Translations under genes and position numbers: made by a program
IMG/VR virus record: IMGVR_UViG_3300034101_003554
Coordinates: 1-64,000 of that record
Direction: 5' to 3' (one strand)
From: a virus
DNA: 64,000 nt
Shown here: positions 43,327-57,595 of the stretch, piece by piece
Layout of the letters: the number at the start of each line of letters is the position of its first letter
How positions within the stretch are numbered: the first letter of the stretch is position 1
Notes under the pieces: model-generated
The model's input: only the letters and a program-made list of their open reading frames with translations
Databases searched by the model: none
Told to the model about the DNA's origin: nothing

Positions 43327-43337
43327 AACAATTATAT

Positions 43338-43412: not shown

Positions 43413-43422
43413 CAAACAAATT

Positions 43423-43509
43423 GGAAAGTTAAGCTCGGCGGCCCGAGTCTACGTCTTGAAAACGATAGGTACAATTGTATTGTATGGGGATCGACACCTC
43501 AACTTTCCG
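43423..43509 (+). tRNA. tRNA-Ser(TGA)
   Basis: Long variable arm, G73; irregular D and T loops. Confidence 0.8.
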
Positions 43510-43519
43510 CAACAAATTT

Positions 43520-43592
43520 AGTCCCATAGTTCAATGGATTAGAACCGAACAATACGAATGTTCAAATACCTGTTCGAATCGGGTTGGGACTA
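43520..43592 (+). tRNA. tRNA-Arg(ACG)
   Basis: gaaca-at ACG aa-tgttc. Confidence 0.88.
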
Positions 43593-43601
43593 CAAACAAT
43601 T

Positions 43602-43688
43602 GGAGGATAAAGTAATCAGGGTCGTTACCACCGCCTGCTAAGCGAGTGGCACCAAGTATGGTGTGGGGTTCGTGTCCTCTGTCCTCCG
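43602..43688 (+). tRNA. tRNA-Ser(GCT)
   Basis: Long variable arm, G73. Confidence 0.82.
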
Positions 43689-43801
43689 CAGAAAAATATT
43701 AATAAGATTAGAGCAGTTGAGTTCATAACTCAAAGGAATGCAGACAGTGGAGATGAGCGACCCACCTAATCATATTAAATGAAGAAAAATATTCCAAAGT
43801 G

Positions 43802-43833
43802 TTTGGAAATTAGAAAATGAAATCGTAATTTTG
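43802..43833 (+). promoter_or_regulatory. Bacteroidota-type promoter
   Basis: TTTG-N20-TAATTTTG. Confidence 0.7.
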
Positions 43834-43842
43834 TGATACAAT

Positions 43843-43972
43843 AGTCCTGTGGCGAAAGTTAAGGGTAGAGTGAAGATTGAATGTTCAGACACTCCTTAAT
43901 ACTAGGATTGGAGCGAAAGGTCTAACATAAACAATATGTAGCTTAATACAAGTTCGAATCTTGTCAGGACTA
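43843..43972 (+). ncRNA. tRNA-shell RNA 1 (130 nt)
   Basis: agtcctg/caggact-A acceptor stem plus T-arm; unrelated interior. Confidence 0.75.
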
Positions 43973-43994
43973 CTAAAAATTAAAAACTAAAATT

Positions 43995-44171
43995 ATGGAC
44001 ACACATTATTGGGTAAGATTTGAGATTAGAATTGAAACTATCAACAATAGTTTAAACGCTGATGAACAAAAAGAAATCTTTGACTATATAAAATCAAGAA
44101 TTGACGGTAGAGATGACATAGATAGACCTAAAAAGTTGGATTGTTGTTTTGTCAATATGAGAAAATTTTAG
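43995..44171 (+). CDS. Small hypothetical protein (58 aa)
   Basis: MDTHYWVRFE..., A-rich start. Confidence 0.6.
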   Translation: MDTHYWVRFEIRIETINNSLNADEQKEIFDYIKSRIDGRDDIDRPKKLDCCFVNMRKF

Positions 44172-44184
44172 ATAAGTTAAATAT

Positions 44185-44295
44185 AGTCCTATGGCGGAAT
44201 TGGTAGACGCACTCCCCCTAGATAGGGAGAATATTGTTTCGACGCAATTAACCAGGTGATGGCATCTAATACAGGTTCGAATCCTGTCAGGACTA
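44185..44295 (+). ncRNA. tRNA-shell RNA 2 (111 nt)
   Basis: Leu-like D-arm, 8-nt anticodon-position loop, about 40-nt extra region. Confidence 0.75.
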
Positions 44296-44320
44296 CAAAA
44301 ATAAAAATAAAATTAGGAAT

Positions 44321-44554
44321 ATGAAAAAGTCACTTGAAGAAGTAAAGAAATTGAATACGAAAAATCTTCTACGTTTTTATAGAGCAGAACGTATAAGATT
44401 TTATGGTAGTGGATACTGGTGTAGTTGTGGGTGTGGTGAAATGATATGGGAAGCAAGAACATCACAAGCAGATATGGAACAAAAATATAATGAACATAAA
44501 GATTTTTTGAATGTAATTAAAGCAGAACTCAATACAAGAGAACATATTTCTTAA
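44321..44554 (+). CDS. Small hypothetical protein with CxCxC
   Basis: 77 aa. Confidence 0.7.
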   Translation: MKKSLEEVKKLNTKNLLRFYRAERIRFYGSGYWCSCGCGEMIWEARTSQADMEQKYNEHKDFLNVIKAELNTREHIS

Positions 44555-44575
44555 AATTGTTTGCGAAACTTTTAA

Positions 44576-44696
44576 AGTCTTGTGGCGGAAGTGATAGACG
44601 CTATTGTAAAAGGGTTCACATCCCAAAGATGAGCAAGTGTAATTGCTACATAGATAATGTCATATTATCATACAGGTTCGAATCCTGTCAGGACTA
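44576..44696 (+). ncRNA. tRNA-shell RNA 3 (121 nt)
   Basis: agtcttg...acaggttcgaatcctgtcaggacta. Confidence 0.75.
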
Positions 44697-44721
44697 TTTT
44701 TTAACTTTAAAACAAATTATT

Positions 44722-44976
44722 ATGAAATCTTTACAAGAACTTTACGCAAACACACCAATTCAAGTGATTGTTGATTTCTATATTCAAAATAACACAGAAG
44801 TATGCCTACTCGAAGGTAAAATTCATAACGGTGACTTGTCTGCAATTGAAGAATTAGAAACCCTTGTTGCCAAAATCCTAAATTATGAGATTGAGAATTT
44901 TGAAGGTAAAGAGTGTTTTGAATCAGCATACCTGAAAAGAATGAAAATGTTGGTTAGAACTAAACAAATTCTTTAA
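44722..44976 (+). CDS. Hypothetical protein (start moved to MKSLQE)
   Basis: Upstream part of the ORF is the tRNA-shell. Confidence 0.7.
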   Translation: MKSLQELYANTPIQVIVDFYIQNNTEVCLLEGKIHNGDLSAIEELETLVAKILNYEIENFEGKECFESAYLKRMKMLVRTKQIL

Positions 44977-44992
44977 AAAAAAATTAAAACTT

Positions 44993-45204
44993 AGTCCTGT
45001 GGCGGAATTGGTAGACGCACATTAGCTGAGTGATGCAATAAGCAAGTACCCCTAATTAAAAGCCTAACGGATTTTACCCACTAGAACAATAAAAATCCTC
45101 AGATTGGGTTTAGGGTCTTACCAAACTCTCCGAAAACAGAGTAGGAGCTGTTAATAACCAAGATGGTAAGTGTTTATTTACAGGTTCGAATCCTGTCAGG
45201 ACTA
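44993..45204 (+). ncRNA. tRNA-shell RNA 4 (212 nt)
   Basis: Perfect shell with about 160-nt insert. Confidence 0.75.
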
Positions 45205-45218
45205 CAAAAAATTAAAAA

Positions 45219-45368
45219 ATGTTAGTAATTATTGGTCTTTTATTTTTGATAATTGGAATCTTATTCTTAATTTTGTCTTACAAAACAAAGAACTCAGACT
45301 TGTTTATAGTTGGAATTATATTTCTAATTGTTCTTTTGTTTGGATTTATATATGGTTTAATAATATAG
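45219..45368 (+). CDS. Small two-helix membrane protein (49 aa)
   Basis: MLVIIGLLFLIIG...; read manually. Confidence 0.5.
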   Translation: MLVIIGLLFLIIGILFLILSYKTKNSDLFIVGIIFLIVLLFGFIYGLII

Positions 45369-45436
45369 GTGTAGCTCAGAGGTAGAGTGCTAGTTTTGGG
45401 AACTAGTGGTCGCTGGTTCAATCCCAGTCACCTATA
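45365..45436 (+). tRNA. tRNA-Pro(TGG)
   Basis: ctagt-tt TGG ga-actag. Confidence 0.9.
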
Positions 45437-45449
45437 CAAGATTTTTAAA

Positions 45450-45523
45450 GGTTCTATAGCTCAATTGGTTAGAGCACCCGACTCATAATCGGTAGGTTCT
45501 AGGTTCAAGTCCTAGTGGAACCA
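45450..45523 (+). tRNA. tRNA-CAT, probably Ile2 (lysidine type)
   Basis: CAT anticodon; body resembles Ile2 tRNAs; adjacent to Ile(GAT); identity inferred. Confidence 0.8.
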
Positions 45524-45538
45524 CAACAATTTTAACAA

Positions 45539-45613
45539 TGTCCTGTAACTCAGTTGGTTTAGAGTATTCGTCTGATACGCGAAAAGTCGTGAGTTCGAGC
45601 CTCACCAGGACAA
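45539..45613 (+). tRNA. tRNA-Ile(GAT)
   Basis: ttcgt-ct GAT ac-gcgaa. Confidence 0.9.
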
Positions 45614-45621
45614 CAACAAAT

Positions 45622-45694
45622 GTCTCAGTAGCTCAGTGGTAGTAGCCCTTGACTGTTAATCAAGTTGTCGTAGGTTCGAATCCTACCTGGGACG
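45622..45694 (+). tRNA. tRNA-Asn(GTT)
   Basis: cttga-ct GTT aa-tcaag. Confidence 0.92.
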
Positions 45695-45710
45695 CAAATT
45701 TTAATAAATT

Positions 45711-45938
45711 ATGGTTAATGTAAAAATTGGTGAATTTAAGGTTGGTGATAAGTTGTTTATTGATTATAGTGAAAATAATCCAAACAATAAACACATCGAA
45801 ATTAGAGCAATTGTGGATATGGAAGTGGTGATTTATTTGGATGAAAAAAATAACTACCATATGGAACCAATTCATTACTTCAATGTGTTATGTAGATGTA
45901 ACTCACTTAAAAAAATAACAAATGAAACGGACAATTAG
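45711..45938 (+). CDS. Hypothetical protein
   Basis: 75 aa. Confidence 0.65.
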   Translation: MVNVKIGEFKVGDKLFIDYSENNPNNKHIEIRAIVDMEVVIYLDEKNNYHMEPIHYFNVLCRCNSLKKITNETDN

Positions 45939-46077
45939 AAAACCAAGTTCATCCAAGTTTTATGAAATGCTTAGAAATAAGTACAACAACCACATTAAGA
46001 AACAAGAAAATGAAATGGAAGATTCTACAAATTAGATTCCAACCTAAAAAATTTAATTAACAATATATAATTTTCAT

Positions 46078-46587
46078 ATGAAAAAAGAGTTTTTATTTAA
46101 TGATAACATTATTGATTTTGAATTTGACGAAGTAATAGATAAAAAAATAAATGTTAAGGTATTTCACTATTTCAGTAATAATCTTTTATTTGAAAAAATT
46201 GAAGATAGAATAATTTGTCTTAAAGGTATTGGTAAATTATTCTTTCAAGAAGGATTCCCAATTTCATTATCTATTTCAGTATTAAAAGAACAAGGGGTTG
46301 AGGTTAGTATATTACACGTTGCTGATGAATGTTTAAAAAATGGGTGGTCACCAATAACAACATATAATAAATTAAAATCTGACTTTGAAGAAGATATTGA
46401 CAAAGAAAATCATTATGATTTACATTTATTAAAAAAATTTTGTGAATCAAATTATGAAGACCAAAGAGAAATGATATTTGAATATCTGTTTAAATGCAAA
46501 ACTGATGATGTCAGAAATAAAAAAAATGAAAATCCAATAGACTGGTTACAATTACTTGTAACTAGTGGGGCTAAAAATAAACTTTAA
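46078..46587 (+). CDS. Hypothetical protein with an AlaRS-like GFP helix motif
   Basis: KLFFQEGFPISLSISVLKEQGVEV. Confidence 0.65.
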   Translation: MKKEFLFNDNIIDFEFDEVIDKKINVKVFHYFSNNLLFEKIEDRIICLKGIGKLFFQEGFPISLSISVLKEQGVEVSILHVADECLKNGWSPITTYNKLKSDFEEDIDKENHYDLHLLKKFCESNYEDQREMIFEYLFKCKTDDVRNKKNENPIDWLQLLVTSGAKNKL

Positions 46588-46596
46588 CAAGAAAAT

Positions 46597-46671
46597 GACC
46601 CTGTAGCTTAGCTGGTTTAAAGCACAATACTTTTAATATTGGGAGCGGGAGTTCAAATCTCCCCAGGGTCA
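46597..46671 (+). tRNA. tRNA-Lys(TTT)
   Basis: caata-ct TTT aa-tattg. Confidence 0.9.
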
Positions 46672-46868
46672 CAACACAATAAGTTACGAAAGGTGTTATT
46701 AGAAAATAGTAGACATATTTTTTGACATTATGGGTCTGAAAATAAAAATTAAGGATGGTACGAAAGTTCAGGACTTTGACTGTAAACTAGGAAAGGTAAC
46801 TAAGATACGCGGTCTCGGTTCTATTGGAGTACAATTATCAGTATAGCCCAATCATTCTTTTATAAATA

Positions 46869-46953
46869 GTCCTTATGGTGTAATGGTTAAACATCCCACT
46901 CTTACAAAGTGGAGACGAGAAGTATAATCCTAGTTCGAATCTAGGTAAGGACA
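46869..46953 (+). tRNA. tRNA-Val(TAC) with expanded variable region
   Basis: ccact-ct TAC aa-agtgg; 16-nt variable region. Confidence 0.82.
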
Positions 46954-46982
46954 CATTAAATAATTTTTAAATTACAAAAACG

Positions 46983-47231
46983 ATGAAAAAAATATTATTC
47001 CTTGGATTAATTTCTGTATTATTCCTTAGTTGTCAAAGAGAAGGTATAGAAGAACTAAAAACAGATAATGCGAATTATAACGTTGAGCTTCTATTTAAAG
47101 TTGATGGATGTAAGGTCTATCGATTTTGGGATAAAGGATACAAGTATTTTACAACTTGTGATGGATCCGTGACTCATAAACTAAGTGGAAAACACCCCAA
47201 AGATTTGGGAATACAGACAATCGTGAAATAA
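46983..47231 (+). CDS. Lipoprotein (DUF4884-like)
   Basis: Lipobox FLSC; VELLFKVDGCKVYRF. Confidence 0.75.
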   Translation: MKKILFLGLISVLFLSCQREGIEELKTDNANYNVELLFKVDGCKVYRFWDKGYKYFTTCDGSVTHKLSGKHPKDLGIQTIVK

Positions 47232-47467
47232 AGATTTGAACAATTAAGGGACCGAGCCTGCCTACAATTTCGGTGTGAGGTGCTAGTAGGTAATTGTTCT
47301 TTATGTTATAATAGTACCACGAGGCATCCCATAAGAACTGCTCACTACTGTGGTCTTGTTGCTTGTAAACGAATAGCCCAAGGTATAAGTTATGAAGCTT
47401 AACTCAACCTATCCCCCACTGACGAGTGGGGTGAAGTTGGGGGATTTCATATATTTATAGTAAAAAA

Positions 47468-47926
47468 ATGATGAAAGATTTAAGAATACGTATTAAAACA
47501 ATTTTAAAAGAAGAATTTGAAAATTATACTATAGTATATCGTGGTATTGGAGATAGAATTAACGCTACCTATGGTAAAGTATCTGATGATGGAATGGGTG
47601 TATTTTGGACAGATAATTTAACTATGGCCAAATGGTTTGCTGGACTTATTGATTATTCTGTTGATACTTATAGATATGAAAATATAAAAGGTTCTAAGGG
47701 TAAGATTTTAACTAAAGAAATAAAATTTGAAAATCCATATGTTGTTAATTCAGATGATGAAGATTATGACTCATTTCAAGTTTATATGGATGAAATATAC
47801 AAATTCGGTGGGGTTGACAAATATAAAGAAATGTTAATTGAAAAAAATTATGATGGTATCATATTAAGAAATTGTTCAACAAATTACTATGAAAATGGAA
47901 CTTATGATATCTTTATTGAGTTATAG
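47468..47926 (+). CDS. ADP-ribosyltransferase-like protein with LKE leader
   Basis: VYRG ... GVFWTDN..MAKWFA ... YDGIIL. Confidence 0.55.
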   Translation: MMKDLRIRIKTILKEEFENYTIVYRGIGDRINATYGKVSDDGMGVFWTDNLTMAKWFAGLIDYSVDTYRYENIKGSKGKILTKEIKFENPYVVNSDDEDYDSFQVYMDEIYKFGGVDKYKEMLIEKNYDGIILRNCSTNYYENGTYDIFIEL

Positions 47927-47948
47927 GTAATATAAAAAGAAACAATAG

Positions 47949-48033
47949 GGTTGGGTGGCCGAGTTGGTTAAGGCACTAGTCTGCAAAACTATCGAATGAA
48001 AATTCATCGTGGGTTCGAATCCCTCCCCAACCT
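47949..48033 (+). tRNA. tRNA-Cys(GCA) with long variable arm
   Basis: U73; atgaa/ttcat extra stem. Confidence 0.85.
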
Positions 48034-48042
48034 CAAACAAAT

Positions 48043-48115
48043 GTAGATGTAGCTCAATTGGTAGAGTTGCTGATTCCAAACCAGCCGGTTGGGGGTTCGA
48101 GTCCCTCCATCTATG
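48043..48115 (+). tRNA. tRNA-Trp(CCA)
   Basis: gctga-tt CCA aa-ccagc. Confidence 0.9.
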
Positions 48116-48146
48116 CAAATTTTATCAACAATTAAAACTATTTATT

Positions 48147-48467
48147 ATGGTAAGGGATTACATAATCGAAACATTAACAAAAATCAAAGAACAAGATGAG
48201 AAGGTACACAAGCTCTATACTATGGGAGTTGATTTACTTGACTTTGACAACACCATTTCGCAACTTGAGAAGTCCATTCCGACCATCCTCAGAAAAGAAA
48301 AAGACGAACAATACGGATGGATACAGGATTTAGTTGGTTGGTGGTTGTATGAAAAAATTGAAAAAAAGATTTGGCACGATAAAATTGAATTTAATGTTGA
48401 AAGTGTGGAAAATTTTACCGACTATTTGATAAGAGAGTATGGAACAAATGACATACCAACAAATTAA
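48147..48467 (+). CDS. Hypothetical protein (start moved to MVRDY)
   Basis: Upstream part of the ORF overlaps tRNAs. Confidence 0.75.
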   Translation: MVRDYIIETLTKIKEQDEKVHKLYTMGVDLLDFDNTISQLEKSIPTILRKEKDEQYGWIQDLVGWWLYEKIEKKIWHDKIEFNVESVENFTDYLIREYGTNDIPTN

Positions 48468-48469
48468 TT

Positions 48470-49102
48470 ATGGCTTATATTGAAAGTAATTTTTTCCCTT
48501 TAAAGGTATATGTTCGAAATGAATATCTATATCAAAATAAGAAGGGATTTGGTGAATTTACTGAGGGTGTTATAATCTCAATTAGATGTTTACCAGGACA
48601 AGCTGCACTATTCCAAGTATTATTTAATAATGGTGTTATGAGAGATAAACTTCCATCTCACGCATTATTAACTGAACCCAAATCACCTAATGTTGATTTA
48701 CCATTCCATTATCTTCAAATATGGAATTGTTTTTCATACAATTTCTCGGTACATCATTTAAGTTATATCTATGATACCAAAGTTTCAGTCTTTATGAAAG
48801 ATAAGAAATGGTATGATGGAAGTTATTATGCCACAATAAATTGGGGTTCTAGTGATTTGAATAGTGATTTTACCTTGGCTGAGGATCCAATGGAACATAA
48901 ATCACATCACATAATACTACTGAATAATGGCCAAATTGCCCTACAACCAAATAATAGAATAAAATGGGCAGAACCATCCTTTGTCACAAAATCTTTCCCT
49001 GAGAAGCCAGATTATTTGGTGAATAAGGATTATTATAATTGTGAGGGGTTCGAGAAATGGCAAACTGAGGATTCTGATTATATGTTTTATGATAATAATT
49101 AA
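48470..49102 (+). CDS. Hypothetical phage protein
   Basis: 210 aa; EHKSHH..L.NGQIALQPNNRI. Confidence 0.8.
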   Translation: MAYIESNFFPLKVYVRNEYLYQNKKGFGEFTEGVIISIRCLPGQAALFQVLFNNGVMRDKLPSHALLTEPKSPNVDLPFHYLQIWNCFSYNFSVHHLSYIYDTKVSVFMKDKKWYDGSYYATINWGSSDLNSDFTLAEDPMEHKSHHIILLNNGQIALQPNNRIKWAEPSFVTKSFPEKPDYLVNKDYYNCEGFEKWQTEDSDYMFYDNN

Positions 49103-49105
49103 GAT

Positions 49106-49489
49106 ATGTTTTTATATAAAGTAGAAGTTAAAATAGCAACTAATCCTGAAATGGACTTAGGTTTATTCACAAAAGAATTTATCCCAAAAGGAACTATAGT
49201 TTGGGAATTCGTGGAAGGTGTGGATATTAAAATGGATGAAACGACATTCAATAAATTGAACGAAGCTCAAAAAGAATTTTTTGAAAAATATGGGTGGAAG
49301 GAAGATGATGGGTTTTATTATTCCTCTTGTGACTTAACTAACTTTATTAATCATAGTTACAATCCAAATTTAGATGTTGTGGGGGAAATAATAATTTCAA
49401 ATAAAGATATCCAAATTGGGGAAGAATTATTTGAAGATTATAGTCAATTTGATACTGAGTTTCATACTTATAAAAATGAATTTATTTAA
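49106..49489 (+). CDS. SET-domain protein (lysine methyltransferase-like)
   Basis: GLFTKEFIPKGT, NFINHSYNPN, GEELFEDY. Confidence 0.85.
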   Translation: MFLYKVEVKIATNPEMDLGLFTKEFIPKGTIVWEFVEGVDIKMDETTFNKLNEAQKEFFEKYGWKEDDGFYYSSCDLTNFINHSYNPNLDVVGEIIISNKDIQIGEELFEDYSQFDTEFHTYKNEFI

Positions 49490-49498
49490 CAAAAAAAT

Positions 49499-50014
49499 AT
49501 GACACCAATGGTAATTGTAAATTTCTATAAACCCTATGATACGACTTGGGAACAACTCCAACTAATGGCATTGGATAAAATTGCCGAACACGAAAAAGAA
49601 ACAAGCGAAGTTGAATTTGGGGATGTCTCCGTTCAACAACAATTTGATGATTATCGTGCAGCTTGTTTTCAAGGGTTAAAAACATTTATAATGCAAGTTC
49701 TAAATGAATGGGGGACTGAAAACATCTTGGTGTTTAATGATAAATTCTATAAGAAATTTGAACATATGGAAATGGAGGGTAGATTAAAAACTTATACAAC
49801 TCCAAATGTTTTCAAAACATCAAAGGAATTATTTAAATGTTTAAAGAAAGAAAAGTTTCAATTAGAACCAGATGATTTTGATTTTATTCACGAAACTTTT
49901 TCAAGTGCTGACGATGTTGTATGTAATATATTCGCGTTTGAATATGAATTAAAAGAAATTGATGATGACAAAGATTGGTTGGATGAGAACGGATTTGGTG
50001 ATATTTTAGAATAA
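49499..50014 (+). CDS. Hypothetical protein
   Basis: 171 aa ending DENGFGDILE. Confidence 0.75.
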   Translation: MTPMVIVNFYKPYDTTWEQLQLMALDKIAEHEKETSEVEFGDVSVQQQFDDYRAACFQGLKTFIMQVLNEWGTENILVFNDKFYKKFEHMEMEGRLKTYTTPNVFKTSKELFKCLKKEKFQLEPDDFDFIHETFSSADDVVCNIFAFEYELKEIDDDKDWLDENGFGDILE

Positions 50015-50030
50015 AAAAAAAGATAATAAT

Positions 50031-50270
50031 ATGAAAACAATAGGCGTATTAGAAGCATTGAAAGATGAAACAATTAAAAAAGGAGATAAAATAATTATTG
50101 AACTTATTGTTGATGAAATAGATATTGAAAGTATGTACCCATTATCTGCATTTTGTTTTAATCAATATGATGAAATATCAAAAACTAATTATTTTAAATT
50201 GTCATGGAGTACTAAAATAAAAATAAAAGACATAAATGATGAGAACGGATTTGGGGATATTTTAGAATAG
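50031..50270 (+). CDS. Hypothetical protein sharing its C-terminus with the upstream gene
   Basis: Ends DENGFGDILE (duplicated DNA). Confidence 0.65.
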   Translation: MKTIGVLEALKDETIKKGDKIIIELIVDEIDIESMYPLSAFCFNQYDEISKTNYFKLSWSTKIKIKDINDENGFGDILE

Positions 50271-50272
50271 TT

Positions 50273-50590
50273 ATGAAAAAGAAAAAAAATATATTTACAA
50301 AAGAAATTAAGGTAGCCGATGCTAAGACATCTGTTAGTGAATTAATAAGAGAAACATTAATTAACTTCAGTTGGGGTTTCTTTGGTAATTCAATAGTTGT
50401 ATTTATGGCCAAAGAAATTGATCTTGCCGTATTGATTAATTTTTTATTATATTATATCTTAATATCTTATATTGTTAATCGTGCGAAATATGAAAGTAAT
50501 TTTGGTAAATTCATTGTTTTACCTGGTTCAGCGGCATTAGGAGCATTCACAGGATATAAAGTAGCACAAATTATTTCACAATTTTTGTAA
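50273..50590 (+). CDS. Membrane protein
   Basis: Three hydrophobic segments. Confidence 0.75.
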   Translation: MKKKKNIFTKEIKVADAKTSVSELIRETLINFSWGFFGNSIVVFMAKEIDLAVLINFLLYYILISYIVNRAKYESNFGKFIVLPGSAALGAFTGYKVAQIISQFL

Positions 50591-50617
50591 CTAATTTAAT
50601 ATAATATATTTATTAGT

Positions 50618-51106
50618 ATGAAACTTAATGAAGAAATAAAACGAATAAAAGGTTTAATGTTGGAAAACTCCGACCCTTTCACTATTTCAACAGCGGGTAG
50701 TATTAATATAACACCTGGTCTTCACATATCTATTAATAATGGTGAAGTTAAGATGGGTCATATTAATATGATTGATTTTGATAATGGAAAACATTATGAT
50801 TACTACCTACCAAGACTTTTGTATAATGTTAATGAATATTGTAAATCAAATTGTACTGAAAATTTATTCAATAATAATAACTCAATATATCTACACGATT
50901 TAGAAATTTTTAAACCTTACAGAGGTAAAGGTCTAAGTAATCGTCTAATGGACGAATGTCATAAATTAGGAAAAAATATGGGAGTTGACTACATTATTCT
51001 AATAACTGAATGTAATAATTATGTAGCCCAAAACTTATATAAAAAATATGGGTACGAAATTTATAGTTCAGATGGTATTGAAGACTTATTTTACAAAAAA
51101 ATTTAA
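50618..51106 (+). CDS. GNAT acetyltransferase with LNEE leader
   Basis: YRGKGLSNRLM ... NYVAQNLYKKYGY. Confidence 0.85.
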   Translation: MKLNEEIKRIKGLMLENSDPFTISTAGSINITPGLHISINNGEVKMGHINMIDFDNGKHYDYYLPRLLYNVNEYCKSNCTENLFNNNNSIYLHDLEIFKPYRGKGLSNRLMDECHKLGKNMGVDYIILITECNNYVAQNLYKKYGYEIYSSDGIEDLFYKKI

Positions 51107-51201
51107 AATAAAGACTCAACAACTTGATTAATTTTTGTAACAAACTTGACCTTTTGTATTATATCGTTATATTTAATAAAAAAATAGTAAAAACTTCACA
51201 A

Positions 51202-51273
51202 ATGAAACACAATCTCTATATGGACTTAACAACTAGAGCTGAGGGTAGAAATCCTCGGATGGAGATGGTATGA
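51202..51273 (+). CDS. Leader peptide of tRNA cluster 2 (MKHNLYMDLTTRAEGRNPRMEMV)
   Basis: Codons 5-16 all match cluster-2 amino acids; followed by a terminator. Confidence 0.8.
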   Translation: MKHNLYMDLTTRAEGRNPRMEMV

Positions 51274-51300
51274 TATAAGGTTTTAATTGTTAATAAAATC

Positions 51301-51339
51301 AAATCCATCTTCCTAAAAAAAAGATGGATTTTTTTTTTT
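51301..51339 (+). terminator. Attenuator terminator of tRNA cluster 2
   Basis: aaatccatctt/aagatggattt plus long T-tract; alternative pairing with ggagatgg at 51261-51268. Confidence 0.85.
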
Positions 51340-51346
51340 GAGAGTG

Positions 51347-51378
51347 TTTGAAAATGTGAATTAGTAATTGTATCTTTG
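51347..51378 (+). promoter_or_regulatory. Bacteroidota-type promoter followed by boxA-like TGTTCATTGAAA
   Basis: TTTG-N20-TATCTTTG. Confidence 0.7.
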
Positions 51379-51410
51379 TGATGTTCATTGAAATTGAGGG
51401 AAAAATATTT

Positions 51411-51485
51411 GGTACCATAGTTTAACGGCAAGAATATAAGGTTGTCACTCTTATGGTAGGGGTTCGATTCCCCTTGGTACCGCCA
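51411..51485 (+). tRNA. tRNA-Asp(GTC)
   Basis: Cloverleaf, G73, CCA. Confidence 0.9.
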
Positions 51486-51504
51486 AAAAAAAGTTTTAAA
51501 AGTT

Positions 51505-51534
51505 GGAACTAAATGAGATGAAGGTTGGTTTATA
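51505..51534 (+). promoter_or_regulatory. ECF-sigma-like promoter
   Basis: GGAACT-N16-GGTTTATA. Confidence 0.6.
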
Positions 51535-51559
51535 ATAATGTAACTTAAAAAAATAGATT

Positions 51560-51706
51560 ATGACAAACTTTATGATAAACTTTATTATTCTTGCTATTTT
51601 TATAATGCTTTTGGGTTTTATTGGTAACTATATCATAAAAAAATATCCAGATTCTTGGGTAGCAAAATGGTGGGATGATATGACTGATATTGGTCATTGG
51701 TGGTAA
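51560..51706 (+). CDS. Small membrane protein (48 aa)
   Basis: Read manually, after the ECF-like promoter. Confidence 0.55.
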   Translation: MTNFMINFIILAIFIMLLGFIGNYIIKKYPDSWVAKWWDDMTDIGHWW

Positions 51707-51890
51707 ATTAAAATAATATCTATGTCACGAGATTAAGATGTGACTTACGTTCTAAGGAGTTTACTTATTGTCAATTAGGGCGGACGAAGGCAACATAAGT
51801 TATATTATGGTGACTTGATATTCACCATAACGAATACAAGATATCAAAAAGAGAAGTGGAGAGTTCTTATTCAAAACTTCTCTTTATTTT

Positions 51891-52173
51891 GCCTAGGTGG
51901 TGTAATGGTAGCCACGCAAGACTTAAAAATTTGAGTGCTATTGGTGAAAACCTTTAAGTAGAACTCCGTAAATTCGGTGAAGCCTTTAAAATGGTAATAC
52001 CGAGCCAAGTTCAAGAAATTGAAAAGGTGTAGAGACTAGACACGGAGAACCTAAGTCGAAAGATATGGTTAAGGTATAGTCCAGACCACAAACTGAAAAG
52101 GTGGTGAAAACCATAGTGGTAAGAAAATCTTGTGACCAGTAAGGTCGTGCGGGTTCGAGTCCCGCCCTGGGTA
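51891..52173 (+). tRNA. tRNA-Leu(TAA) interrupted by a group I intron; exons 51891-51924 and 52124-52173
   Basis: Spliced arm caaga-ct TAA aa-tcttg; long variable arm. Confidence 0.9.
51925..52123 (+). mobile_element. Group I intron (trnL-UAA type), 199 nt, no ORF
   Basis: P1 with U.G pair; P AAATTCGGTGAA, Q AATACCGAGCC, R GTGTAGAGACTAGAC, S AAGGTATAGTCC; terminal G. Confidence 0.9.
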
Positions 52174-52195
52174 CAAAAAAAAAGTTTAAAAAAGA

Positions 52196-52227
52196 TTTGG
52201 AATTAAGAAAATCAAATCGTAATTTTG
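52196..52227 (+). promoter_or_regulatory. Bacteroidota-type promoter (duplicated at 52371-52402)
   Basis: TTTG-N20-TAATTTTG inside an approximately 58-bp direct repeat. Confidence 0.7.
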
Positions 52228-52236
52228 TGAGACAAT

Positions 52237-52348
52237 AGTCAGGTGGCGAAATGGTAGACGCACATCCGCAGGTGATTTAGTTTGAGGATACAGCGGCAGT
52301 CGAGGTCACAAACATATACAAATATAGGTTCGAATCCTATCCTGACTA
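52237..52348 (+). ncRNA. tRNA-shell RNA 5 (112 nt)
   Basis: agtcagg/cctgact-A, Leu-like D-arm, T-arm. Confidence 0.75.
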
Positions 52349-52417
52349 CAAAAAAAAAGTTTAAAAAAGATTTGGAATTAAGAAAATGAAATCGTAATTT
52401 TGTGACACAATAAAAAC

Positions 52418-52490
52418 GCACCATTCGACAAGGGGTATAAGTCACCTCCCTTTCACGGAGGAGTCACGGGTTCGAATCCCGTATGGTGTA
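52418..52490 (+). tRNA. tRNA-Glu(TTC)
   Basis: cctcc-ct TTC ac-ggagg. Confidence 0.92.
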
Positions 52491-52542
52491 CAAATCTCAG
52501 AAGTAATTAATCTGGGGCTGAGAGGTTCGAAACTCACGGAAA

Positions 52543-52642
52543 TGATTATGGTGTAGGCGCACGGAAAGATAAAGTATGAGAATGGTAAGTACCCATTAAA
52601 GAAATTGACATCAGGATTAAGGTTCGAATCCTTATTAATCAA
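52543..52642 (+). ncRNA. Degenerate tRNA-shell-like element
   Basis: tgatta/taatca stem plus taagg-ttcgaat-cctta T-arm. Confidence 0.35.
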
Positions 52643-52651
52643 CAAACATTA

Positions 52652-52723
52652 TGCAAGGAAGGGCAACGGTCGTCCGCTAGGCTCATAACCTAGAAGCTGT
52701 GGGTTCGATTCCCACCCTTGCGT
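52652..52723 (+). tRNA. tRNA-Met(CAT), possibly initiator-like
   Basis: ctagg-ct CAT aa-cctag; non-Watson-Crick 1:72 pair. Confidence 0.8.
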
Positions 52724-52732
52724 CAAACAAAT

Positions 52733-52807
52733 TGCAAGATGGACTGGAGGTGGTTCCAGCTCGGTCTCATAAGCCGTACCATGTGGGTTCGACTCCCACT
52801 CTTGCAA
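52733..52807 (+). tRNA. tRNA-Met(CAT)
   Basis: cggt-ct CAT aa-gccg. Confidence 0.82.
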
Positions 52808-53079
52808 CTAAACAACTTAACTAATGGCGGTAACTGATTAGTAAAATAATCGAACTAAAGCAATCTAATGGAAGTTGAGTAGCGTCTAATATAGTAGTTT
52901 TATAATACTTGCACTACAAATGGGTATTAAATTAACAGGTTGGGAATCTGACTACATAATATTAGTGTTAGGTGGACTTAAATAAGTGAACACCTGTGTA
53001 ACGGGTTGAAAACTTTACGATTGAAATGTCGACCATTTGGGTTAAGTTCTATTTGTAGTAGAACTTGTAAGTTGTAAAA

Positions 53080-53165
53080 GGGTGTCTATCCAAATTGGTG
53101 AAGGAAGCTGTCTGTAAAACAGTTGCCACGTGCTAAACTTGGGGGTTCGAATCCCTCGGCACCCA
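53080..53165 (+). tRNA. tRNA-Tyr(GTA)
   Basis: gctgt-ct GTA aa-acagt, long variable region. Confidence 0.88.
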
Positions 53166-53377
53166 CAAAAGAAATGAAACCTTACATAGGATGGATTAGC
53201 ACCATTGAAAGAGAACTTGGCTCTCATAGGATCGCAACCTAAATCGAGAGTAATAATGACCCAAGTTGTTATGTAGGAGACCCTGCTCTACTGTGCACGG
53301 TATCAGGCTATGGGGAACAAACCATCGTAAAACTCTTGCCCATATAATACTTATGGAAGGACTTTCATTTCTAATTT

Positions 53378-53452
53378 GCAGTAATAGCTCAATGGTAGAG
53401 TTCTTGTCTTCCAAACAAGATGTTGCGAGTTCGAGTCTCGCTTACTGCTCCA
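53378..53452 (+). tRNA. tRNA-Gly(TCC)
   Basis: U73, CCA. Confidence 0.92.
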
Positions 53453-53468
53453 AATTTAAAAATTCATT

Positions 53469-53681
53469 ATGAATCAGTCTGAATTTAGAAATCTTAGAAC
53501 TGGGGATAAAATCCATATTAAGTCTCGTGATGGTTTATATACCTTCTTAACAAAAGACTTTATAACTGGTGAAATTCATATAACTTGTAAAAGATGGAAA
53601 TATGAAGATTCCCCAATCAGAGTAACAAGTTTTGATGATTTCAAATGTTTGGCTGGTGGATTATGGAGAAAAATTATGTAA
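53469..53681 (+). CDS. Hypothetical protein
   Basis: 70 aa. Confidence 0.65.
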   Translation: MNQSEFRNLRTGDKIHIKSRDGLYTFLTKDFITGEIHITCKRWKYEDSPIRVTSFDDFKCLAGGLWRKIM

Positions 53682-53754
53682 TAGGAGAAAGTAAGTCGGT
53701 TGGTGTATAGCTTCCTTACGTCTAAAATTTAAGCACAATTACATAATACAAAAA

Positions 53755-53831
53755 GGGGGATTAGCTCATTCAGCAAGAGCACTTGTTTTGCACACAAGAG
53801 GTGGTCGGAGCAAAGCCGACATCCTCCACCA
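53755..53831 (+). tRNA. tRNA-Ala(TGC)
   Basis: G3.U70 pair, CCA; atypical T-loop. Confidence 0.9.
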
Positions 53832-53860
53832 AAAAATAAACGTTGTTTTAAATTTAATTT

Positions 53861-54466
53861 ATGAAAAAATTTTTAGTATTTTTAGTATTATTTGTATTAT
53901 TGACATCTTGGTCATATACACCCCCACGTAGGGTATTATATATCGGTGATAGTTTAACCTGTGCTCCTGGTGGGTGGCAGGATCAAGTTTCAAAACATTT
54001 TGGATATCAAAGTCTCAATCTAGCAAAAGGTGGTGTTAGAACGGATTATATGAGAACGACAATGAATGCTTGTTTTAAAAAAGATTCAGCTTTCTCTCAG
54101 GTATTCATTTATGGTGGATGTAACGATGCTTTTTCTATGGTAGATTTACAAGGGGCGGTGAATAACATTCAGATGATGGTTGATAGTTGTAATAGAAGAG
54201 GAATTGAACCTATTGTAATTGTGGGTTTTAATCCAGCTCAAGTAACAACAAAGACTGTGTATGACGCAGAAACAACCAAGAGATGTGTTGGAAGATACAT
54301 TGAGTTTCAAAAACTAATGGTTAAAGAAAAAACTGGATTAAAGAATTGTAAAATAATTCCTATGGACACTACAATGTTTTATAGTGATACTTGGGATGGA
54401 ATTCACTTCGCACCTTCTGGACATAAGAAATTTTCTACTTGGGTTATAAATAATATGGAAAAATGA
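53861..54466 (+). CDS. Secreted SGNH/GDSL hydrolase
   Basis: Signal peptide; IGDSLT, GGCND, DGIH; resembles the SGNH domain of 32355..33932. Confidence 0.88.
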   Translation: MKKFLVFLVLFVLLTSWSYTPPRRVLYIGDSLTCAPGGWQDQVSKHFGYQSLNLAKGGVRTDYMRTTMNACFKKDSAFSQVFIYGGCNDAFSMVDLQGAVNNIQMMVDSCNRRGIEPIVIVGFNPAQVTTKTVYDAETTKRCVGRYIEFQKLMVKEKTGLKNCKIIPMDTTMFYSDTWDGIHFAPSGHKKFSTWVINNMEK

Positions 54467-54714
54467 AAAAAATATTTTGGTTTTCAACTTTAATCACTAT
54501 CTTTGTATCCTGTTACAAACACCCCACAATAGAACCTGGTGATATTGTTAAGAAGTGTGTGATTGATACGATGTATATTACAGAATCTCCATCTACAATT
54601 GAATTTGGTAAAAGATATAATTATAAAACCGATTGTGATGAATTGATAATGACAAGAAGAAGTGATGTATATAAAATAGGGGATACAATAACCTATGTTT
54701 ATAAAAGAAGATAA
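54463..54714 (+). CDS. Putative lipoprotein
   Basis: Lipobox FVSC. Confidence 0.7.
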   Translation: MKKIFWFSTLITIFVSCYKHPTIEPGDIVKKCVIDTMYITESPSTIEFGKRYNYKTDCDELIMTRRSDVYKIGDTITYVYKRR

Positions 54715-54720
54715 TTATTT

Positions 54721-54806
54721 GCCGTTTTCGCATAGTGGTTGATTGCACTGGATTTGTAACCCAGTTCCGTTAGGACACGTCAGTTCGAATCTGACAAACG
54801 GCTCCA
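54721..54806 (+). tRNA. tRNA-Thr(TGT) with long variable arm
   Basis: TGT anticodon; tcc-gtta-gga extra stem; CCA. Confidence 0.88.
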
Positions 54807-55142
54807 AAAATCCCAATTGATGTAGATAGATTGGGTGGTCTGCAAGCCTCAATTGCCGTATTTGGTTAATATGTTAACCTAACCACGTATTATGGTTAAT
54901 ATGTCACTATAACTAGGGGTCGCCAAGACCAGATTGTTGGCAGTTTACACGAGATAGTCACTCGCATTTTCTACAAAAGGCAAAAAACACTAGTCCGTTT
55001 CTACTGGATGAGGGGGTATTGAAAAAGTGTAGCTAACTTGGAAGATACCCCAAAATTTTTTAAAAAAAAACATAGGAAAAAGTGAATAATTCAGGAAGAA
55101 CAACTATCTTTGTCTTATTAATCACTGAAACACATAATCACA

Positions 55143-55373
55143 ATGGCTAAAGAGAAAAAAACAATCCAAGTTGAGTTATTAAAAGAATTCGCAAACAACT
55201 ATTTGGCTATTCCAATGGTTTCTATCCAAGAAAAAATGGGCATTATCACAATGATTGAAAAGGTTCTACATGAATCCAATGCTTATAAAGGCTATATGTA
55301 TTTGAAACTTGAAGAAAACAATACCCCACCAGCATTTGAAACTGAGGGGTGGGTAACAAGAAAATATTTTTAG
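55143..55373 (+). CDS. Hypothetical protein
   Basis: 76 aa after a TATCTTTG box. Confidence 0.7.
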   Translation: MAKEKKTIQVELLKEFANNYLAIPMVSIQEKMGIITMIEKVLHESNAYKGYMYLKLEENNTPPAFETEGWVTRKYF

Positions 55374-55488
55374 TGGTTGTGACACCTAATAATTCACAAG
55401 TAGTGGTTGACACTTAGAATGTTACCTGACTTTAAGGTTTGGAATAGAAAAACCGAAAACTTTTAAAACTTTTAAAACTTTGAATATT

Positions 55489-55752
55489 ATGGCACTTATT
55501 TATGTAATCTTGGATAGCAACGATAGAATTCCTATTCTAACTGCAAGTAGTATTGAAAAAGCTGAATTACTTTTGAATCAATATATGGGTGTTGAAGGTC
55601 CTATATTTGATGAAAGTGTTGAGTATATAGGTTTTGAACCATTTGATGACAGAGGTTATTACACAATTTATGAAGGCGAATACAAATATAAGACAGAAGA
55701 TGGTGAACAAAGATTCATGAGATATTGTATGGGATTAGATAGTTTAGATTAA
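55489..55752 (+). CDS. Hypothetical protein
   Basis: ATG start MALIY. Confidence 0.7.
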   Translation: MALIYVILDSNDRIPILTASSIEKAELLLNQYMGVEGPIFDESVEYIGFEPFDDRGYYTIYEGEYKYKTEDGEQRFMRYCMGLDSLD

Positions 55753-55822
55753 AAATTATGGTAAAGATTGTAATTTTGTGAACTATTTTTTATTCTAAAT
55801 ATTTATTATTAAAAATAAAACT

Positions 55823-56272
55823 ATGAGTAAAGAAATGAGGAAATTTATAGACGCATTCAAAAAATTCAATTTGAATGAAAGTGTTACTAATGTATATAAA
55901 CGAGATGATGATGATGATGATTCACCTATTATAATTGAAGGTGAAATAGAATATGATGATGATGTATTTTATTACAAAGTCGAGTATCACGATGATTTCG
56001 GATATAAAGTATTTGAAGTAACATCAGAAGAAAATGAAGATGTTGAAGATTTTTTTGATGATGATGAATATGAAGAATTATTAGGTTTAATAATTGATGA
56101 TGTAAAATCAGAAAGATATAAAGAAAAAGAAATATCCACTAAGTGGGTTGCTATTGATACCAGAAATGGTAGAGTAATACACAGAAGTAAAAATCATATT
56201 GATAGAAAATTTGTTGCTGAATTGTATGATATACCAAAATCTTTTATAGAAATTAAAATAGAGACAAGGTAA
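55823..56272 (+). CDS. Acidic protein with LNE leader
   Basis: MSKEMRKFIDAFKKFNLNES. Confidence 0.8.
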   Translation: MSKEMRKFIDAFKKFNLNESVTNVYKRDDDDDDSPIIIEGEIEYDDDVFYYKVEYHDDFGYKVFEVTSEENEDVEDFFDDDEYEELLGLIIDDVKSERYKEKEISTKWVAIDTRNGRVIHRSKNHIDRKFVAELYDIPKSFIEIKIETR

Positions 56273-56310
56273 AAATTATTACACATAACATAAATATATA
56301 TGTAACTTTT

Positions 56311-56452
56311 AGTCCTATGGCGGAAGTAGACGCTGTGGTGCAAATCCACTTAGCCCAAAGGGGGTTACAATATAGAGGTTCAATTCCTCTACTGGCACGG
56401 ATGTGTCAGATTGGCGTTGTTGTAAATACAGGTTCGAATCCTGTCAGGACTA
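56311..56452 (+). ncRNA. tRNA-shell RNA 6 (142 nt)
   Basis: Shell with two extra T-loop-like hairpins inside. Confidence 0.75.
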
Positions 56453-56487
56453 CAAAATAAATTTTTTAACAAACTTAAATTTTAATT

Positions 56488-56655
56488 ATGAGTGATTTAG
56501 AAACAAAACTTCAAATTTTACAAGAGCAATTAAAACTCAACAATGAAAAACTTGAACATATGAGAGATGAAATAAAGTTTAGTAAAACTTTTATTTATTT
56601 TGATTTAGCATTGTTGGGATTAATTTTGTTATACGTAATTTTGTTTGTAATTTAA
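56488..56655 (+). CDS. Small coiled-coil plus transmembrane protein (55 aa)
   Basis: Read manually. Confidence 0.6.
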   Translation: MSDLETKLQILQEQLKLNNEKLEHMRDEIKFSKTFIYFDLALLGLILLYVILFVI

Positions 56656-56665
56656 AGTGGAATTT

Positions 56666-56737
56666 AGTCCTGTAGCCAAATTGGTAAAGGCCTCATGTAT
56701 GGATGAGAGAGTATGGGTTCGAATCCTGTCGGGACTA
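56666..56737 (+). ncRNA. tRNA-shell RNA 7 (72 nt, 6-nt anticodon-position loop)
   Basis: agtcctg/cgggact-A; ctcat-gtatgg-atgag. Confidence 0.7.
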
Positions 56738-56759
56738 TTAAAAAATAATTCTAACCTTT

Positions 56760-56789
56760 GGAACTAAATGATAGGTAAAAAGGTTTATA
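56760..56789 (+). promoter_or_regulatory. ECF-sigma-like promoter
   Basis: GGAACT-N16-GGTTTATA. Confidence 0.6.
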
Positions 56790-56831
56790 GTTATGTAAGT
56801 TGAATATTAACACACAAAAAAATTAAAAATT

Positions 56832-57002
56832 ATGAATATAGAAGATGTAAAAAAATTAATTAAGGAAAACCTTAAAATTAGTGTAGAAACTCTCACTAGA
56901 GGTAGTGAATGTTCGTATAATGAAAAAACATATGTTAAATTAATTTTTCTTGATGAAGTTATTTCAGAAACAGAAATTGAAAAACTTAGTGAAGATAGAT
57001 AA
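56832..57002 (+). CDS. Small hypothetical protein (56 aa)
   Basis: Read manually. Confidence 0.6.
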   Translation: MNIEDVKKLIKENLKISVETLTRGSECSYNEKTYVKLIFLDEVISETEIEKLSEDR

Positions 57003-57042
57003 TAATTTTATGTTTTATAACATAAATATATATGTAACTTTT

Positions 57043-57187
57043 AGTCCTATGGCGGAAGTAGACGCTGTGAGAGTATGTGTATGGCTCTGTTAGGTTCGTG
57101 TAACGCTATTAACGGGAATTAGTAGATGATTTCAAAGATAAAAGCACATACAAAATCTACGTATAGGTTCAAATCCTATTAGGACTA
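57043..57187 (+). ncRNA. tRNA-shell RNA 8 (145 nt)
   Basis: agtccta/taggact-A; upstream and 5' end identical to shell 6. Confidence 0.75.
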
Positions 57188-57289
57188 CAACATTTAAAAC
57201 ATCAACTCGTAAAGAAAATGATGGCAAAGAGGTTCAGATTAAAGGTAACGGGCTCCTACCTACCCTGAACAAGATGTTTTAATTAATAT

Positions 57290-57403
57290 GGTCAAGTGGC
57301 GGAATGGAAGACGCTAAGTAAGATGGTGTACGTTTGTCCCATAAGAAAGACCGATGCAACAGAAATGTGAAGGGTCGTATAGGTTCAAATCCTATCTTGA
57401 CTA
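57290..57403 (+). ncRNA. tRNA-shell RNA 9 (114 nt)
   Basis: ggtcaag/cttgact-A, Leu-like D-arm, T-arm. Confidence 0.75.
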
Positions 57404-57415
57404 CAATATATATTA

Positions 57416-57488
57416 GCACCCATAGCTCAACTGGAAGAGCAATTGCCTTCTAAGCAATAGGTTACAGGTTCGAATCCTGTTGGGTGTA
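57416..57488 (+). tRNA. tRNA-Arg(TCT)
   Basis: attgc-ct TCT aa-gcaat. Confidence 0.92.
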
Positions 57489-57595
57489 CTAAATTTTAAA
57501 GAAGTACAAGAGTTCTATTTCTATGTAAATTGATAACTTAAAATCTAACGGCTTTCAAAAACGCAGAATATAGTTTATTAAAATTCCGACCTTCA

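Follow-up and report, generated by a model that had tools for sequence, protein, structure and literature searches.

The tRNA array of a viral contig from IMG/VR (IMGVR_UViG_3300034101_003554) raises the question of what is encoded by genes that have the ends of a tRNA and an unrelated sequence in between. The stretch analyzed here, hereafter the window, comprises the first 64 kb of this 141-kb contig, for which CheckV estimates a completeness of 48%. It contains nine such elements, all on the + strand and 72-212 nt in length, which have in common an acceptor stem of the type AGUC..GACU-A, the D-arm of a tRNA-Leu and a T-arm of standard form. An initial annotation described them as a family of 'nine or more' tRNA-shaped shells, and we retain the term shell. 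On balance, the comparisons presented below favor the view that the shells are nine genes encoding small non-decoding RNAs that all have a single tRNA-Leu frame, and that they are part of a very large uncatalogued phage family.

To delineate the family we used a covariance model, R1, built from 34 family members, the structure of which consists of the acceptor and T stems. When applied to the whole 141-kb contig, R1 retrieves exactly the nine shells, so that 'nine or more' amounts to exactly nine in this 48%-complete contig; the next matches are ordinary tRNAs. All nine score between 42 and 67 bits, compared with at most 37 bits for ordinary tRNAs. Short sequence patterns lead to the same set. 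The pattern of the 3′ half, AGGTTCRAATCCTRTYNKGACTA, has 10 matches against 0.00 expected from shuffled sequences, nine of them being the shells and one a tRNA-Arg, and the pattern of the 5′ half, RGTCNNRTGGCGRAA, matches all nine shells. Both halves are thus found at each of the nine places where a shell had been annotated. The features that define the family are a 7-bp RGUC..GACU acceptor stem, A73 (present in 9/9 shells), the T-arm ACAGGUUCGAAUCCUGU and the tRNA-Leu D-arm, the latter being shortened or altered in shells 1, 6, 7 and 8. Three acceptor variants, AGTCCTG/CAGGACT, AGTCAGG/CCTGACT and GGTCAAG/CTTGACT, each followed by A73, are present just as initially described.

Shell 1 (43843-43972; 130 nt; R1 50.5 bits) has the acceptor AGTCCTG/CAGGACT-A, a degenerate D-arm (GGCGAAAG..) and the T-arm AAGTTCGAATCTT, and a near-identical copy of it is found in a sister strain (L063). 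Shell 2 (44185-44295; 111 nt; 60.7 bits) has a full tRNA-Leu D-arm. Shell 3 (44576-44696; 121 nt; 61.8 bits) carries an insert of three hairpins, and shell 4 (44993-45204; 212 nt; 43.6 bits over the full length) the longest insert of all. Shell 5 (52237-52348; 112 nt; 66.9 bits) has the acceptor AGTCAGG/CCTGACT-A. The D-arm is shortened in shell 6 (56311-56452; 142 nt) and, in the same manner, in shell 8 (57043-57187; 145 nt; 42.4 bits). Between these two lies shell 7 (56666-56737; 72 nt; 53.1 bits), which is the size of a tRNA. Shell 9 (57290-57403; 114 nt; 61.3 bits), with the acceptor GGTCAAG/CTTGACT-A, has an identical copy in another sister strain (L015).

The shells are non-decoding, as none of the nine has a usable anticodon loop. 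A canonical tRNA has a 5-bp anticodon stem and a 7-nt loop with U33 and a purine at position 37; this arrangement is absent from the shells, which have loops of 4, 6 or 8 nt, a 7-nt loop without U33, or no stem at all. The idea that the inserts stand in place of the anticodon arm holds only roughly. A short hairpin survives at this position in shell 2 (5-bp stem, 8-nt loop), shell 5 (4-bp stem, tetraloop), shell 6 (7-nt loop, UGCAAAU, no U33) and shell 7 (6-nt loop). In shell 6 the hairpin is accompanied by a second, T-arm-like one, and in shell 5 the extra sequence is mostly a long, enlarged variable-arm-like helix. The reported lack of a normal anticodon loop is corroborated by ARAGORN, which accepts a single element among the nine, shell 7 with its 6-nt loop, and that as tRNA-???. 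With the Rfam tRNA model (RF00005, gathering threshold 29), four of the nine score 33.6-41.5 bits by means of large insertions (shell 2, 37.8 bits; shell 7, 41.5 bits) and five remain below the threshold. Even at permissive thresholds, Rfam searches of the window and of eight shell-rich loci produced on the shells only weak tRNA matches and none to another Rfam family. In agreement with the initial annotation, the interiors of the nine shells display no mutual BLAST similarity.

The same frame is found far beyond this contig, its acceptor stem, D-arm and T-arm being nearly identical in sequence between phages that are otherwise unrelated. The 3′ half alone has matches in at least 119 IMG/VR contigs, and among the matches listed we extracted 144 distinct elements of 67-345 nt. 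Their consensus is AGTCAGG-T-GGCGGAAT(T)GGTAGACGC ... ACAGGTTCGAATCCTGT-CCTGACT-A, and ARAGORN accepts 38 of the 144 as tRNAs, with scattered anticodons. R1 detects 207 matches in 100 sources, including copies that do not have the exact search pattern, which bears out the notion of a real family with a tRNA-Leu frame. In the 150 best R1 matches, the acceptor and T stems are 99.5% paired. Double changes are seen at pair 5-68 in 11 sequences and at pair 6-67 in 14, values attained in 0 of 500 shuffles, whereas pairs 1-4 are nearly fixed as A-U, G-C, U-A and C-G; pair 3-70 is U-A in 145/145 sequences. Shells of other phages likewise reside in tRNA arrays. In bacterial genome bins, shells occur on contigs assigned to many phyla, which are probably binned phage DNA. 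A blastn search of cultured phages with positions 43800-45300 returned no match, the conserved halves being too short for BLAST, and in the literature we found no description of the shell family. Nor did tblastn comparison of open reading frames (ORFs) of the contig with the 119 shell loci reveal any protein that travels with the shells, the most widespread one being present at 7 of the 119. Since few proteins of this phage recur at the other shell loci, the shell is better conserved than its surroundings. The shell family is a real, widespread and uncatalogued phage RNA family with a tRNA-Leu frame and exchangeable structured inserts.

Bacteroidota tRNA-Arg(UCU) and cyanobacterial tRNA-Val(UAC) have only the T-arm and the 3′ acceptor strand in common with the shells, and they are a possible origin of the 3′ half of the frame. 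In Microcoleus loci (L143, L155, L171 and others) the tRNA-Val(UAC) has exactly the acceptor AGTCCTG/CAGGACT-A and the T-arm of the window shells; in Bacteroidota loci (L130, L134 and others) the tRNA-Arg(UCU) has the shell T-arm and a ..GGACTA end.

The D-arm of the shells is that of bacterial tRNA-Leu. Of 101 elements, 87 have A14-A15 and 89 have U48, the base preceding the T stem, which together provide an A15-U48 pair; the frame also includes the D-loop GG and A73. Leucyl-tRNA synthetase (LeuRS) of E. coli requires A73, A15-U48, G18G19 and the D/T elbow, whereas the anticodon and variable arm are dispensable, and tRNA-Leu deprived of both arms is still charged (PMC9976931). The whole set of E. 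coli-type features (A73, A15-U48, G18G19 and an intact D/T elbow) is present in shells. Because the frame holds every element needed by the E. coli enzyme, leucylation may occur, that is, the shells may be charged with leucine. The borders of the elements are also of the tRNA type. Position -1 is T in 91 of 101 elements and C in the other 10. At position 74, 98 of 101 elements have C, with AA or TA after it; a CAA/CTA trailer is likewise found on the tRNAs of the window itself. From these borders we infer cleavage by RNase P, 3′ trimming and CCA addition, so that the shells would be matured like tRNAs. The frame bears the known needs of LeuRS, RNase P and the enzyme that adds CCA (PMC9976931). 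The phage's own decoding tRNA-Leu genes begin with GCCU, unlike the shell acceptor. A CCA-adding enzyme (PF01743) and an L/F-transferase (PF03588) were not found in the contig, which is a 48%-complete fragment.

Next, we asked whether the inserts, too, are conserved. The type found in shell 5 is the best represented: its 16-base pattern occurs at 30 loci, of which 12 are real shell members, while the remainder look like chance matches. Eight distinct sequences of this type come from contigs with unrelated flanks, and the structure we derived and an independent RNAalifold prediction agree on a tetraloop stem plus a variable-arm helix. Within the helix, pair 46-77 occurs as UA, AU and GC, pair 53-71 as GC and AU, and not a single pair is broken. 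The same insert is also found inside an AGTCCTG/CAGGACT frame (L256) and inside a frame with a G1-C72 pair (L247). For the shell 3 type, two hairpins of the insert persist at two further loci (L079 and L228), with four compensatory pairs at 72% column identity. The copy of the shell 6 type in sister strain L015 is 89-90% identical and has two compensatory pairs in the first hairpin. Further insert groups in the sample show the same behavior. Where comparison is feasible, that is, for the types of shells 3, 5 and 6, these patterns of substitution indicate that the inserts are under selection. The covariation which the initial annotation had held against simple decay is thus seen both in the frame (99.5% paired) and, as double changes, in the inserts of shells 3, 5 and 6.

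How shells are gained and lost can be followed in three sister strains (L063, L015 and L039), which are mostly 90-100% identical to the window in matched flanking blocks and differ in their sets of shells. In L063, one chimeric shell, which begins as the 5′ half of shell 2, continues with a 40-nt insert and ends as the 3′ half of shell 4, takes the place of window positions 44212-45177 (the rest of shell 2, an ORF, shell 3, another ORF and most of shell 4). The left breakpoint of this indel lies in the 5′ half of shell 2 and the right one in the 3′ half of shell 4. L036, with unrelated flanks, has the 40-nt insert as well. L015 has a single shell of the shell 6 type, joined straight to the 3′ half of shell 8 and its trailer, and is devoid of the two ORFs, shell 7 and the shell 8 insert. 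In the window, this segment is enclosed by the two copies of an exact repeat of 53 nt (56285-56337 and 57017-57069, + strand), which consists of the leader ATAACATAAATATATATGTAACTTTT and the 5′ half of shell 6 or shell 8; in other words, the first 27 nt of the two shells and the 26 nt upstream of them are identical. Between tRNA-Leu(UAA) and tRNA-Glu, where the window has shell 5 only, four other shells are found in L039, together with promoter cassettes and trailers. Breakpoints are thus located at the conserved halves, and the genes around the shells change more slowly than the set of shells itself. We read this as homologous recombination between shell halves, with shells acting as putative recombination anchors, a point that was absent from the initial annotation. 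The L063/L036 insert, together with the types of shells 3, 5 and 6, demonstrates that insert types are kept across phages and can be exchanged between frames.

Some shells also have what appears to be a promoter of their own. The cassette TTTG-N20-TAATTTTG is repeated four times, before shell 1, shell 5, tRNA-Phe and tRNA-Glu. The copies at 43802-43833 and 52196-52227 (+ strand) end 9 nt before shells 1 and 5, respectively, and that at 52371-52402 (+ strand) precedes tRNA-Glu. The more relaxed pattern TTTG-N18-21-TANNTTTG has 14 matches in the window against 4.4 expected (43142-43173, 43802-43833, 51347-51378, 52196-52227, 52371-52402 and others), situated before tRNAs, shells and ORFs. The cassette pattern corresponds to the Bacteroidota -33/-7 promoter consensus, and these promoter-like motifs, on which the host assignment relies entirely, suggest a host from the Bacteroidota. 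Shells 6 and 8 have a different leader in common, ...ATATATGTAACTTTT, which brings the number of shells with a putative promoter-like leader of their own to four of nine. In different phages, two conserved hairpin leaders, TTGACAGCTCGGAAAGACGAGCAACAT (L041, L112, L069, L081, L050, L031 and L019) and CTACAACACAGAGGAYTTCTCATCCTCAAAT (L039, L081 and L101), are located directly before shells; they may be phage-specific promoters or processing sites.

If the shells are indeed genes for non-decoding RNAs, each shell RNA would be transcribed from the tRNA cluster, in four of nine cases from its own promoter-like leader, and would then be cut by RNase P, trimmed at the 3′ end and supplied with CCA. 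It would fold into the L-shape of a tRNA, with the elbow and acceptor end of tRNA-Leu, and the frame would confer stability. The insert, projecting from the position of the anticodon and variable arms, would be the working part, most likely a binding module directed against a factor of the host or the phage. In the DNA, the conserved halves of ~25 nt would offer the homology for cassette swapping. The speed at which shells turn over between near-identical strains suggests that they have a role in the conflict between phage and host. A bolder version of this scenario, which we put forward tentatively as the less probable one, is a natural 'tRNA-scaffold display library'. Here the leucine-tRNA frame would assure processing, stability and perhaps leucylation, its halves would allow hundreds of aptamer-like modules to be swapped, and the modules would be RNA effectors against host factors or defense systems, an RNA counterpart of protein anti-defense cassettes.

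Several observations weigh against an RNA gene family with working inserts. Comparative support extends to three of the nine inserts only, shells 1, 2, 4, 7, 8 and 9 being without diverged relatives in the sample. Single-sequence folds of the inserts barely beat those of shuffled sequences (z -0.5 to -1.9; shell 5, +0.09). Complementarity of the inserts to targets, which the initial annotation had proposed to look for, did not materialize: within the 141-kb contig there is no antisense match above chance, and comparison of 43843-45204 with 301 Bacteroidia genomes gave no match to insert modules, the matches being almost wholly confined to the T-arm/acceptor, the D-arm and A/T-rich spacers. The search pattern and the model used to collect the members account in part for the near-invariance of AGUC/GACU. 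The LeuRS rules are those of E. coli and may differ in the host of this phage. Finally, the repeated sequence alone could account for recombination at shells, which need not then be a selected role.

Among the alternatives, one is suggested by the layout of the locus itself. Small ORFs alternate with shells 1-4 (43995-44171, 44321-44554, 44722-44976 and 45219-45368, + strand), and a second set (56488-56655 and 56832-57002, + strand) lies among the later shells; they have no informative family, two weak PHROG matches of unknown function being all that was retrieved. The alternation is strict at 43843-45368 and 56311-57002, shell borders resemble those of tRNA genes, and phage T5 has the same mixture of tRNAs, small ORFs and tRNA-like RNAs. 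Shells could accordingly be tRNA punctuation, that is, RNase P and 3′-end signals that cut a long transcript into mRNAs for single small ORFs, with the insert free to drift. As a complete explanation this seems to us rather unlikely. The inserts are kept with compensatory changes across unrelated phages and so do not drift; shell 9 is directly adjacent to tRNA-Arg, shell 5 lies between promoter cassettes with no ORF, and the ordinary tRNAs of the array could do the cutting. Punctuation may, nevertheless, be an added role of non-decoding shell RNAs.

It is also rather improbable, to our mind, that the frame and not the insert is the working part. The shell would then be a tRNA look-alike, leucine-chargeable or uncharged, which sequesters or diverts a host enzyme (a tRNA-targeting toxin, LeuRS or an aminoacyl-transferase) acting on the acceptor end or the elbow. 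This would fit with the fast turnover between strains, with the presence of all E. coli LeuRS elements and with the near-invariance of the first four acceptor pairs and A73, as opposed to the GCCU start of the phage's decoding tRNA-Leu, although that invariance stems in part from the way the members were collected. The many different inserts per genome and their covariation would be left unexplained, and no gene for a partner enzyme (PF01743, PF03588) was found in the 48%-complete contig.

The initial annotation also considered the shells as possible ligands of a Ro60-like protein, by analogy with Y RNAs. The candidate is a DUF2828/DUF7788 (TROVE/Ro60-like) gene at 40766-42226, identified with Pfam and named 'RNA-binding protein' in PHROG, which is located 1.6 kb upstream of the tRNA array. 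Its homologues are present in 711 cultured phage records. YrlA and other bacterial and phage Y RNAs mimic tRNA: they have tRNA-like D, T and acceptor parts, are non-decoding and are recognized by tRNA enzymes (Chen et al. 2014, PMC4201824). Like shells, they occur in tRNA-rich phages; Y RNA genes lie near a gene for a TROVE-type protein, and DUF2828 is encoded in three of five large shell-bearing contigs. However, YrlA is permuted, with the T-arm and a closed acceptor hairpin preceding the D-arm, and ends at the Ro60-binding stem, whereas in shells the D-arm comes before the T-arm and the element ends at an open acceptor stem. Rfam gives no YrlA match at E <=1. Moreover, DUF2828 is near shells at just one of 119 loci, which belongs to a sister strain; in the three large contigs, 26-105 kb separate it from the shells, and a shell-bearing contig rated 100% complete does not have it. 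This proposal has thus fared poorly, and we consider it quite unlikely.

That the shells are ordinary tRNA genes with introns to be spliced out is very unlikely, even though the same array does contain a true intron-bearing tRNA-Leu(UAA) and ARAGORN, when introns are allowed, forces a call on most shells. The forced calls are implausible tRNAs, in which the anticodon stems are weak, the variable regions unpaired and the anticodons odd and scattered (aga, att, gag, aca, cgg). With 20-118 nt, the inserts are much shorter than a group I intron and have no match among intron families, and members of 85-90 nt, the normal length of tRNA-Leu, also do not have a standard loop. The genuine case is different in kind. 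The tRNA-Leu(UAA) at 51894-52170 is interrupted by a group I intron (Rfam RF00028, 62.3 bits at 51914-52105), and L039 carries the intron-less allele (3020-3114), in which window positions 51888-51928 are fused directly to 52124-52181; this junction sets the intron limits at ~51929-52123. Shells, by contrast, differ between strains by whole inserts. A group I intron-containing tRNA was rejected for the shells, RF00028 matching at 51914-52105 only. Finally, decaying tRNA-Leu pseudogenes or recombination debris without RNA function, for which the unremarkable single-sequence fold energies of the inserts and the frequent recombination at shells might speak, are hardly credible given a frame that retains 99.5% pairing, with compensatory changes, over hundreds of copies, inserts conserved and covarying across contigs with unrelated flanks, and promoter-like leaders on some copies.

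Stable RNAs of comparable position are known from classical phages. Those of T4, rnaC (species 1, 139 nt) and rnaD (species 2, 119 nt), lie inside the phage tRNA cluster, as shells do, and the 3′ end of rnaC is a T-arm plus an acceptor-like strand. They are late stable RNAs validated by Northern blotting, their function still being unknown (PMC9697503). Unlike shells, rnaC and rnaD have no tRNA-Leu D-arm and no AGUC/GACUA acceptor, rnaC scores 15.6 bits with R1, no better than ordinary tRNAs, and both are single copies, in contrast to a multi-copy family with exchangeable inserts. In T5, tRNA genes, small ORFs, promoters and tRNA-like stable RNAs are interleaved, and this layout, including RNA1, RNA2 and RNA3 (73-144 nt, 'tRNA-like stable RNA with unknown functions'), is shared with shells. 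RNA2 reaches 22.7 bits with R1 on part of its length only, so the T5 sequences are unrelated to the shell frame, and no common frame with varied inserts has been reported for T5. The T4 and T5 RNAs, which with R1 stay at the level of ordinary tRNAs, are analogues of shells and not members of the family. The best R1 match in T5, at 37.2 bits, is the 'tRNA-Met(CAU)' (L227 39-114; 28038-28113 in the T5 record), with the acceptor AGUUAGU/ACUAACU-A; according to the record, changing its anticodon yields no suppressor.

Other RNAs resemble shells in design. Transfer-messenger RNA (tmRNA) similarly has a tRNA-like acceptor/T-arm frame with a large insert at the place of the anticodon arm, and is charged without an anticodon. 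Its G3-U70 alanine identity, tag reading frame and pseudoknots are all absent from shells, and the only Rfam match to tmRNA in the window is a 17-nt piece of T-arm. A phage-encoded tmRNA (Rfam 68.8 bits) is present at L085 553-939, beside three shell-type elements. In the tRNA scaffolds engineered by Ponchon and Dardel, a cargo RNA reportedly replaces the anticodon arm of a tRNA and is processed and stabilized by the cell. The design is that of shells, but the scaffolds are man-made and based on tRNA-Lys or tRNA-Met frames; we found no natural phage counterpart in the literature. A pseudo-tRNA with a cellular role outside translation has been described in Bacillus cereus as tRNA-Other (PMC3399842). 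Unlike the shells, tRNA-Other is one chromosomal gene with the usual size of a tRNA, and it has neither an insert family nor a phage context.

Stable RNAs of phage tRNA clusters have been known since T4 and T5 without an assigned function, and the shell family gives a handle on this question, being abundant and having one fixed frame with many comparable insert types. Sister strains that differ in shell content amount to a natural 'knock-in and knock-out' set. Should the inserts prove to be binding modules, they would make up a class of phage RNA effectors that is new, and the engineered tRNA scaffold would have a precedent in nature; should the frame be leucylated without decoding, it would be a new kind of non-translational aminoacyl-RNA. 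There is also a consequence for annotation, which currently either overlooks shell genes or labels them wrongly as pseudo or undetermined tRNAs.

The array in which the shells reside extends over 42783-58705 and includes 24 ARAGORN calls and many small ORFs, in a window with ~29% G+C. Downstream of it, at 62206-63231, is a gene for an RNA ligase (PF09414 with a PHA02142 OB-fold), which, along with the many tRNAs, hints at a capacity for tRNA repair. In bacteria, a long variable arm is normally confined to tRNAs for Leu, Ser, Tyr and Sec. Three tRNAs of the array, each of 86 nt, nonetheless have an extra arm of 4-5 bp: tRNA-Val(UAC) at 46869-46954, tRNA-Cys(GCA) at 47949-48034, which also has a Ser-type D-arm and U73, and tRNA-Thr(UGU) at 54721-54806. 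Shuffling of frames and anticodon arms is one possibility, unusual charging another. Finally, look-alikes of the freshwater-1 RNA (RF02979, threshold 72) are present at 53272-53332 in the window (58.9 bits) and at 4124-4186 in L026 (70.1 bits), in both cases between tRNA genes of shell-bearing arrays, the two phages being unrelated.

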